Shown here piece by piece: positions 18,959 to 20,334 of a DNA stretch of 26,757 nucleotides. Within the stretch, counting starts at the first letter, position 1; each line of letters starts with the position of its first letter. The position numbers and the translations under genes are program-made. This DNA is from a virus, in the IMG/VR virus record IMGVR_UViG_3300045741_000327. One strand, 5' to 3'. The notes under the pieces were generated by a model. That model was not told where the DNA came from. It searched no databases and saw only the letters and a program-made list of their open reading frames with translations.

Positions 18959-19762
18959 ATGGACGAAGAGTGGAAGAAGGAGAGACTCAGGCAACTGAAG
19001 CTGAGAAAGCTTCAGTCAGGCAAACAGGACAACTTTGGCCCAATCAGTGCCTCCGCCTCTGGTCCTTTTGGTGGACACGTCGCATTGAGCCGAAGCAAGA
19101 CGCGGGGAGTTGGTCGTGGGAGCGTTGCAGTTACTACAGCCCGTGCCAGAACGTTGCGAGGAGCGGGCTTGGTTGACCCCGCAGTTGAAATCGCCAATGC
19201 CATCAATGAGGCACTTGATCCCACCACTGCGAACGGGAAAGTGCGCACTTTGAATGAGATGACCGAGGACGAGAAGCTGAAGTTGGCGACTTCTCTCGGA
19301 GCCAAGATCGCCCCACCTCCAGAGAAGATGGTCAGCCCGACTTCGTCGGCGAAGAGCCCCAATGAACCGACGAAGATCGAAGGAGTTCTCTGCCGCCACA
19401 CTACCGAGAAGGCAATGCTGTTCTCGTATCACGGCAGAGAGCAGTGGGTCCCCAGATACTTCCTCGAGACGAACATCAAGGATGCCGGCGGCACTGGGTG
19501 GATCATCATTCCCCACTGGGTGGCAGTGGACAAGGGATTCGTGGTCAGCGACGCATCAACTGCATTTGAGGTGCGCTCGGACCTCTTGAACCAACTGCAC
19601 AAGCTCATGTTCAAACTGGAGAACGAGAGCGTGCAGGAGACGGACGATCAACACTCTGACGAGTTCTACAGAGGAGTGAAGATCGGAAAGGCAATGGCAG
19701 TAAACGAGCTGCGGGATCTTCTCAAGCGGTTCGACAGAACCCCCAAAACCGAAATCAGGTGA
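18959..19762 (+). CDS. hypothetical protein (267 aa)
   Basis: Internal Met of ORF 18896. GGAGAGAG RBS. Confidence 0.65.
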   Translation: MDEEWKKERLRQLKLRKLQSGKQDNFGPISASASGPFGGHVALSRSKTRGVGRGSVAVTTARARTLRGAGLVDPAVEIANAINEALDPTTANGKVRTLNEMTEDEKLKLATSLGAKIAPPPEKMVSPTSSAKSPNEPTKIEGVLCRHTTEKAMLFSYHGREQWVPRYFLETNIKDAGGTGWIIIPHWVAVDKGFVVSDASTAFEVRSDLLNQLHKLMFKLENESVQETDDQHSDEFYRGVKIGKAMAVNELRDLLKRFDRTPKTEIR

Positions 19763-20334
19763 ACATGGACTTCAAGAAGATCATCTACCTTGGAGTCTTC
19801 TTGGACGAGAAGTCCAAGATGGCTCTTCTGGAGCAGTTCCCACCCATGCACCCCAACATCTTCGGGGCCCACGTCACCTTGGCGTTCAGGCCGACTGAAG
19901 AGGAGATCAAGCGGTTCGAGCCAGCGATCGGCAAGACGGCCACGATCGACGTCAACGGCCTGAAGTACAACACCAAGGGCCAGGCGATCGAGGTCATGGT
20001 TCTGGACGACCTCCTCCACCTCGACCAGAACCCGTTCCGCAAGCCCGGCGAGCAGCCTCTGCACATCACCATCAGCACCGCCGCCGGCGTTCCTCCCAAG
20101 TACAGCAAGGAGCTCGTCCAGGACGACACGGTCGCCTGGAGGCCTGTCTCCATGAAGCTGACTGGGGTCTTCAATACATTCCCCACCTGGGAAGCGGAGC
20201 TGGTCCCTTGCGAAGATTGCAAGGCTGACCACGCTGATCCGATCACCGCAGCCGCTGAGAGGATCGCTATTGGGGCCAAGCCGAAGGGGCTCTGCTGCGA
20301 GTGGTCTCGCAGGCAACTGGAGAAGAAGAAGTGA
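19759..20334 (+). CDS. 2H phosphoesterase superfamily protein (LigT / 2'-5' RNA ligase / cyclic phosphodiesterase-like)
   Basis: Two H-x-T-x motifs in hydrophobic context (GAHVTLAF and PLHITIST) about 65 aa apart, the defining signature of the 2H fold. GTGA overlap with the previous gene. Confidence 0.65.
   Translation: MNMDFKKIIYLGVFLDEKSKMALLEQFPPMHPNIFGAHVTLAFRPTEEEIKRFEPAIGKTATIDVNGLKYNTKGQAIEVMVLDDLLHLDQNPFRKPGEQPLHITISTAAGVPPKYSKELVQDDTVAWRPVSMKLTGVFNTFPTWEAELVPCEDCKADHADPITAAAERIAIGAKPKGLCCEWSRRQLEKKK

Follow-up and report, generated by a model that had tools for sequence, protein, structure and literature searches.

A predicted stand-alone 2H phosphoesterase of the CNPase/Trl1 branch in a large phage and its possible part in RNA 3'-end healing

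In a stretch of 26,757 nucleotides from IMG/VR virus record IMGVR_UViG_3300045741_000327 (the whole of which is called the window below), a small gene with two H-x-T motifs lies shortly after a homologue of the major vault protein (MVP) and downstream of an array of tRNA genes. Which enzyme does this gene encode, and does it act on RNA ends, on immune messengers or in partnership with the vault-like protein beside it? A preliminary description, made from the sequence alone, took the product for a 2H phosphoesterase, offered tRNA repair or immune-messenger degradation as its function and read its position near MVP as a sign of an RNA link. The analysis presented here assigns the protein with high confidence to the 2H fold and, within it, to the branch that contains CNPase and the cyclic phosphodiesterase (CPD) domain of Trl1. 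The fuller interpretation, in which the gene encodes an active, stand-alone, minimal 2H enzyme of this branch that heals RNA 3' ends, is moderately favored.

The gene occupies a plus-strand open reading frame (ORF) at 19759-20334, which is a real coding ORF. Public gene callers begin it at the ATG at 19765, giving a product of 189 residues identical to the window protein, while an in-frame GTG at 19759 represents an alternative start with two residues more. Given these public calls, a Shine-Dalgarno-like AGGTG ahead of the ATG and the position of the upstream stop codon only 2 nt before it, ATG 19765 is the most likely start, and residues are counted here from its Met. The motifs GAHVTLAF and PLHITIST pointed out in the preliminary description can both be read directly from the sequence and its translation. 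Taken alone, such a pair is weak and unspecific evidence: among stop-to-stop ORFs of at least 100 residues in the window, two H-hydrophobic-T/S-hydrophobic motifs spaced 50-110 residues apart were found in 2 of 103, and one of these was a non-coding antisense frame. Two long antisense ORFs also overlap the 2H gene and are by-products of a G+C content of 55-60%. The 2H assignment beyond chance thus rests on homology and structure and not on the motifs alone, and a chance origin of the motifs is effectively excluded.

Searches with the single window protein returned nothing significant in NCBIfam, PADLOC or the PDB sequences, an unnamed family in PHROGs, and only the protein itself in a word-indexed protein search. 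Its relatives were recovered by an exhaustive HMMER (phmmer) scan of 1.84 billion cluster representatives, of which 550 matched at E<=1e-3 and 105 at E<=1e-10, all of them aligning to query residues ~4-141. When the query was aligned with 95 stand-alone relatives (96 sequences), the catalytic positions were found to be retained almost throughout (H36 in 96, T38 in 95, H100 in 95 and T102 in 96). The two positions expected to stack on the nucleoside are mostly aromatic, with 87 Tyr and 6 Phe at Y8 and 83 Phe and 8 Tyr at F41, and conservation extends to S104 (92), P111 (87), Y113 (91) and S114 (95). Trl1 His687 and ThpR Phe48 pack on the nucleoside, and F41 is in the same position (PMC7145591). 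Trl1 Tyr647 and ThpR Phe8 are located on strand beta-1 (PMC7145591), and Y8, by its own position on strand beta-1, would be their equivalent.

The same family alignment indicates the branch. PF08302 (tRNA_lig_CPD) is matched by 69 of the 96 aligned members, with a best E of 3.6e-12, and LigT_PEase by 5 only. Stand-alone relatives bear precomputed PF08302 labels, fused homologues score 24-38 bits against this model (above its cut-off), and a huge-phage homologue reaches 35.8 bits. The window protein itself has no PF08302 match at E<=0.01 or even at E<=1 and stays below the gathering threshold of 23 bits. Against PDB sequences, the family profile has meaningful matches only to CNPase (E 0.016) and to Candida Trl1 KIN-CPD (E 0.09); the CNPase profile alignment covers the N-terminal strand and helix, where the catalytic domain starts, together with the second HxT motif. 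The profile search against LigT and other 2H families that had been proposed as a check upholds the superfamily and moves the best fit of the family to PF08302, with the window protein's LigT_PEase match below threshold.

Structure prediction, the other check proposed at the outset, points in the same direction. A single-sequence AlphaFold model reached a predicted local distance difference test (pLDDT) score of 39, and the AF2 model built with the alignment reached 82.9 and a predicted template modeling (pTM) score of 0.72. In the latter, core residues 1-140 exceed 90 in most blocks and tail residues 141-189 lie at 50-61. The predicted fold is the two-lobed alpha+beta fold of 2H proteins; the HxT motifs lie on two antiparallel strands (residues 36-41 and 100-105) that face each other in the central cleft. 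The top 50 Foldseek matches in the PDB are all CNPase or RICH catalytic domains, with E from 3e-6, and the predicted fold is nearer to CNPase and the Trl1 CPD than to other 2H branches. In the comparison with predicted viral structures, multidomain proteins of giant viruses match best, among them one from CroV (E 4.6e-8) and an 'RNA ligase' of Marseillevirus; Acb1 appears only at E 1.2e-3. Both the conservation in homologues and this confident model with the motifs on strands give the motif pair the meaning that the preliminary description had attached to it.

On the basis of the retained catalytic residues and the branch, the protein is probably an active 2',3'-cyclic phosphodiesterase. By comparison with members of solved structure, the substrate's terminal nucleoside would be stacked between Y8 on strand beta-1 and F41, and its 2',3'-cyclic phosphate would be held between the two pseudo-symmetric H-x-T motifs. 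T38 and T102 would hold the phosphate oxygens, H100 would activate water, and H36 would protonate the 3'-O leaving group. Judged from branch membership alone, the expected product would be a 2'-phosphate and a 3'-OH. Cleavage by metal-independent ribonucleases produces ends with a 2',3'-cyclic phosphate and a 5'-OH, and the enzyme may serve to heal the 3' ends of RNAs, chiefly tRNAs, cut by such ribonucleases of the host. Whether ahead of ligation or following it, a 2'-phosphate end requires a further step by Tpt1 or a phosphatase. The partners of the enzyme, a polynucleotide kinase and an RNA ligase, would be encoded elsewhere in a large phiCbK-like phage genome or be supplied by the host. 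For the RNA-repair role taken by itself, the indications are evenly balanced.

RNA end healing is nevertheless the best-supported role because of the domains to which homologues are fused and the genes that neighbor them. By their listed lengths, 43 of the best 150 representatives exceed 200 residues, and 20 of these 43 were scanned with Pfam. A HAD_SAK_1 phosphatase precedes the 2H domain in P0025, P0033, P0046 and P0071, and P0152 is also a HAD_SAK_1 fusion; HAD_SAK_1 stands for 'HAD domain in Swiss Army Knife RNA repair proteins'. An AAA_33 P-loop kinase is N-terminal to the 2H domain in P0055 and P0122. In two giant proteins of eukaryotic type (P0112 and P0136), MJ1316, an AKAP7-type 2H domain, AAA_33, a CPD-type 2H domain, HAD_SAK_1, R3H and NUDIX are combined in one chain. 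The window protein is stand-alone, with neither a fused P-loop kinase nor a HAD_SAK domain.

Some further architectures were seen among the relatives. P0051 (446 residues) and P0052 (454 residues) join the 2H domain to a C-terminal module of ~330 residues, blank in Pfam, with an FDHH motif that recalls DHH/MYG1-type phosphoesterases. In a 497-kb IMG/VR contig (L021, 9953-12766), a family member is N-terminal in a 938-residue stop-to-stop ORF with no Pfam match, possibly a multidomain architecture of a new kind. In another locus (L019), the 2H domain shares a 368-residue stop-to-stop ORF with a phosphoribosyltransferase-like segment that scores 25.3 bits against a Pfam cut-off of 26.3.

The surroundings of relatives were surveyed by an iterated census with hidden Markov models that covered 23 distinct 2H loci. 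An RNA ligase lies within 5 kb in 4 of the 23, an AAA_33 kinase within 3 kb in 5, and one or both in 8; such associations parallel the LIG-KIN-CPD composition of Trl1. One example is the Ralstonia jumbo phage RsoM2USA (L001, MG752970.1, 4013-7922). Its gp249 is a CPD-type member of the 2H family, gp248 directly downstream is a P-loop kinase resembling AAA_33 and APS kinases, and gp242, also downstream, is an RNA_ligase of PF09414 (E 1e-29). Each of the three bears only the annotation 'hypothetical protein', and together they amount to a split, Trl1-like set for healing and sealing. In two related phage contigs, RNA_ligase (PF09414), Thg1, RlaP, NT5C and RNase_T genes follow 3-7 kb downstream of the 2H homologue, the first three of them at 3-6 kb, and eIF-1a, Macro and RF-1-like genes are also found near it. 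On a 165-kb contig, an AAA_33 kinase gene lies 1.1 kb downstream of the homologue. On a 232-kb contig, the gene directly upstream of the homologue is NUDIX, and cREC_REC, AAA_28 and Macro are close by; in a 595-kb huge phage a methyltransferase, an RF-1-like gene and SIR2 are found nearby. In a more distant bacterial subfamily of 124 residues, the gene is flanked by a Mur ligase gene on one side and one resembling NT5C on the other. Comparative genomics by Iyer et al. likewise predicts an RNA-repair role for jumbo-phage 2H enzymes (PMC7824862).

At the locus itself, the theme of translation support (13 tRNA genes and a bL12 homologue) is counted in favor of repair, and several observations weigh against it. 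The sole Pfam match of the single window protein is LigT_PEase, at 14 bits and E 0.059, below the gathering threshold. Among the ORFs scanned in the 26.7-kb window, Pfam and PHROGs revealed no kinase, RNA ligase, HAD phosphatase or Tpt1, nor was any Tpt1 or phosphatase found there that could remove the 2'-phosphate. This lack of a visible repair partner is the chief weakness of the RNA-repair interpretation for the window gene, and it means that the partners, if any, lie outside the fragment. Among the 23 homologue loci, 15 show neither ligase nor kinase in the flanks covered. A literature search found no biochemical data on stand-alone members of the family, and a search for phages together with CNPase returned only unrelated work on CNPase nanobodies. 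Finally, the NUDIX-adjacent, cREC, Macro, AAA_28 and SIR2 contexts point to NAD/ADP-ribose metabolism.

These last contexts are the basis of the main rival explanation, a rather doubtful one, in which the protein is a small-molecule cyclic phosphodiesterase of NAD+/ADP-ribose metabolism. ADP-ribose 1''-2''-cyclic phosphate (Appr>p) is a by-product of Tpt1, and this compound or free 2',3'-cyclic nucleoside monophosphates (2',3'-cNMPs) would be the substrates; the enzyme would clear or blunt metabolites that signal or come after an assault upon the translation machinery and would heal no polynucleotide ends. The NUDIX, Macro, cREC and SIR2 neighborhoods of homologues agree with this. However, the recurrent fusions are to modules of polynucleotide-type kinases and HAD_SAK phosphatases, the ligase, Thg1 and RlaP neighborhoods indicate polynucleotide substrates, and no NAD/ADP-ribose genes were found in the window. 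The small-molecule and repair roles are not mutually exclusive. An alternative possibility is that the protein is a counter-defense nuclease that, like Acb1 or the 2'-5' phosphodiesterases of eukaryotic viruses, destroys the cyclic or 2'-5' oligonucleotides of CBASS, type III CRISPR or OAS-like systems. Such a role is conceivable for any compact phage 2H enzyme, but it is quite unlikely here, as structural similarity to Acb1 is only half as strong and the context offers no support. Thus, of the two functions suggested in the preliminary description, tRNA or RNA repair is backed by homologue fusions and neighborhoods, and immune-messenger degradation has found no specific support.

It is very unlikely that the 2H-fold protein is inactive or has some other activity, for example an RNA-binding or ligase-like one. 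The window protein does fall below every Pfam threshold, carries a unique Cys-rich tail and has K at position 115, where 82 of the 96 sequences have N; yet it keeps all four catalytic His and Thr residues, the two stacking aromatics and the P-x-Y-S helix, and it is on exactly those positions that the family shows clear purifying selection. A broader proposal, itself unlikely, is that stand-alone minimal CNPase-type 2H proteins form a distinct counter-defense class that erases cyclic-phosphate alarm molecules or alters the ends of cleaved tRNAs, with service to vault-shell RNA as a variant. Their targets could be 2',3'-cNMPs, A2>P-type products and Appr>p, acting as host alarms or arising as products of ring nucleases or Tpt1. 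They could also convert cleaved-tRNA ends to 2'-phosphates and so redirect or block RtcB-type processing by the host. Still more speculatively, the enzyme might service the RNA of a vault-like shell in the phage lineage that carries MVP.

A partnership with MVP has to be judged from the genes' arrangement. The MVP homologue (16105-18822, plus strand) matches Pfam MVP_shoulder (2e-23) and Vault_3 (1e-10), and the 2H gene begins ~0.9 kb downstream with one ORF between, that is, two genes downstream as originally described. The accompanying claim that both genes share one terminator-delimited block was not confirmed. Starting 22 nt past the MVP stop codon is a 16-bp hairpin with a one-base bulge (18844-18882), followed by UUGUUUUU; its dG is -35.4 kcal/mol (z -4.5), and 0 of 200 shuffles were as stable. 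The consensus terminator scan, whose next plus-strand terminator-like site is at 23294, overlooked this hairpin because of the bulge, and folding revealed it. So strong a hairpin after MVP places the 2H gene in the following unit, which starts with the ORF at 18896/19169-19762.

Comparison across viral contigs leads to the same result. None of the 31 non-2H window proteins recurs in any of the first 13 2H homologue loci. A scan of IMG/VR with a 10-sequence sub-alignment of the family gave 13 further 2H loci, most of which are carried by contigs of 108-536 kb. One of these contigs, L018 (also L079; IMGVR_UViG_3300033066_002009), is the only other contig found that has a 2H-family gene neighboring an MVP homologue. 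There, at 10001-13692, the 2H gene, a 189-residue ORF and MVP all lie on the plus strand, with MVP 0.65 kb downstream of 2H. This order is the reverse of that in the window, the ORFs between the two genes are unrelated in the two cases, and only MVP (37% identity) and 2H (38%) are shared. MVP homologues are common in IMG/VR viral contigs: the 164 relatives have identities of 36-44%, and most are carried by contigs of 100-500 kb. When 80 of these loci (L031-L110; 1.57 Mb of flanks) were retrieved and checked, a 2H-family ORF lay within 10 kb of MVP in only one, that of L018. Two huge-phage MVP loci have no 2H-family gene within 20 kb. In the isolate/GenBank phage set, only 3 records have an MVP homologue, all of them uncultured huge phages. 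MVP is absent from 21 of the 23 2H loci, and on three further contigs the two genes are 30-41 kb apart. Assuming that ~30% of genomes of ~170 kb carry a 2H gene, roughly 3 co-locations within 10 kb are expected by chance and 2 were observed, so that the adjacency is not conserved. Although a lineage of large phages carries both MVP and 2H, a functional link between them finds no support. That the 2H protein processes a small RNA tied to a vault-like particle is therefore highly improbable: the spacing in the window, the neighboring genes of L018 and the three contigs with both genes speak for it, and the terminator, the single case among 80 MVP loci, the 2H loci without MVP and the unrelated intervening ORFs speak against it. 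With the terminator between the genes and no other window gene in common, the RNA link drawn in the preliminary description is unsupported.

Table 1. Positions of the 2H gene, its parts and the adjoining features in the window.
Feature	Position	Strand	Remarks
2H phosphoesterase gene	19765..20334 (stop codon included)	+	189 residues; ORF, translation, public gene call, 550 homologous clusters
Y8 codon, strand beta-1	19786..19788	+	predicted nucleoside-stacking aromatic
Motif 1, GAHVTLAF	19864..19887	+	H36 (codon 19870-19872), T38, aromatic F41 (+5 from H36)
Motif 2, PLHITIST	20056..20079	+	H100 (codon 20062-20064), T102, S104; then P111-x-Y113-S114 helix, family-specific
Catalytic 2H core, residues 1-141	19765..20187	+	minimal CNPase/Trl1-CPD-type domain
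C-terminal tail, residues 142-189	20188..20331	+	CxxC...CC pattern; found in no homologue; pLDDT 50-61
Intrinsic-terminator-like hairpin and U run	18844..18890	+	folding, inverted repeat I18
ORF upstream of 2H	18896..19762	+	288 residues from GTG, or 197 residues from 19169 (public call)

The C-terminal tail sets the window protein apart. Homologues stop near residue 140, and no homology to residues 142-189 was found in related loci. The closest homologue, P0002, occurs only on contigs of less than 1 kb, and tblastn similarity that reaches into the tail region of its contig reads through a stop codon and was rejected as noise. An ORF of 84 residues (20301-20555) overlaps the tail and has a zinc-ribbon-like CPECG motif and a weak DUF7296 match (E 0.088). 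When it was compared with the DUF7296 gene situated 3' of a 2H homologue in another locus (L008), the CxxC region alone aligned, and only marginally (pairwise E 0.004).

The ORF that precedes the 2H gene has no Pfam match, and its sole PHROG match is phrog_8389 (function not known) at 5e-5. Only 2 nt separate its stop codon from the 2H start, which makes co-transcription and translational coupling of the two probable. The 13 tRNA genes counted in the preliminary description are located at 125-7028, ~12.7 kb upstream of the 2H gene. Between tRNA-Lys and tRNA-Thr lies the bL12 (L7/L12) homologue (2473-2865, plus strand), which matches Pfam Ribosomal_L12 at 6e-22 and has the L12 dimerisation domain. 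Within the array, a protein of 674 residues (3494-5518, plus strand) matches phrog_1735 end to end (E 2e-281) and no Pfam domain; 543 phage records contain it (Salmonella, Klebsiella, Bacillus, Caulobacter and more), and it has 59% identity to proteins of phiCbK-like Caulobacter phages. The window derives from a large, phiCbK-like phage. A protein resembling nucleoside 2-deoxyribosyltransferases (14403-14882, plus strand; Pfam Nuc_deoxyri_tr2 7e-20) is encoded 1.2 kb upstream of the MVP gene. The ORF at 15133-15726, which starts MIGYHYTP, was considered as a Tpt1-/ART-like partner and rejected, with no Pfam, PHROG or PDB-sequence support. A 16,036-bp Logan assembly of SRR35487356 (L005) matches the window from 10963 on, with the same gene set and an identical 2H protein; its DNA is not identical to the window over the whole length, and thus the phage has been sampled at least twice.

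Cyclic phosphodiesterases of the CNPase/Trl1 type are familiar chiefly from myelin and from the splicing of tRNAs in fungi. The present analysis assigns one phage gene, together with ~550 related clusters that are labelled only 'hypothetical protein' in public records, to a family, a fold and a reaction type, and it newly places in this branch the unannotated RsoM2USA_249 and Atu_ph07 AUZ94815 of cultured jumbo phages. A minimal, stand-alone CPD module of ~140 residues is thereby recognized as widespread in large phages, sometimes beside a separate kinase and RNA ligase. The split set of CPD, kinase and ligase in a cultured phage supports the idea that large phages mend RNA damage inflicted by host defenses, and so small an enzyme could be a convenient model or reagent for the chemistry of 2',3'-cyclic phosphates. 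A tempting link to the vault protein has also been removed as unsupported. The kind of enzyme, its branch and the role predicted in jumbo phages were largely anticipated by comparative genomics (PMC7824862), and for this reason the surprise value is modest.

Compared with known systems, the phage protein is a much reduced member of its branch. The catalytic core of CNPase comprises ~215 residues as opposed to ~140, leaving ~85 CNPase residues without a counterpart, and CNPase further has an N-terminal domain resembling polynucleotide kinases and a membrane anchor, both of which the phage protein lacks. Two residues before the second catalytic His, CNPase has R307, whereas the phage protein has P98. 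The CPD of Trl1, the tRNA ligase of fungi and plants (PF08302; PDB 6TZM/6TZO/6U00), is part of a larger enzyme, while the phage protein stands alone and is ~100 residues shorter than the 250-position model, to which the family's Pfam matches are mainly at positions 160-220, around motif 2. The kinase and ligase that Trl1 unites with its CPD are separate genes in phages, and none is seen in the window. Swiss-army-knife RNA repair proteins (HAD_SAK_1/HAD_SAK_2) possess a 2H domain of like type fused to HAD_SAK_1; their extra domains are absent from the window protein, which corresponds to the isolated CPD module with a unique tail of 48 residues. With LigT/ThpR and the archaeal 2'-5' RNA ligase (LigT_PEase, 2_5_RNA_ligase2) it has in common the 2H fold and HxT chemistry on RNA 2',3'-cyclic phosphate ends, but it reaches neither the Pfam threshold of these families (PF02834, PF13563) nor agreement with their transition-state Arg (ThpR R130). 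The phage anti-CBASS nuclease Acb1 (PDB 7T27, 9Q2Y) is not its closest relative in sequence or in structure. Ultimately, the nearest known counterparts of the phage protein are the catalytic domains of CNPase and the Trl1 CPD, of which it retains the core.

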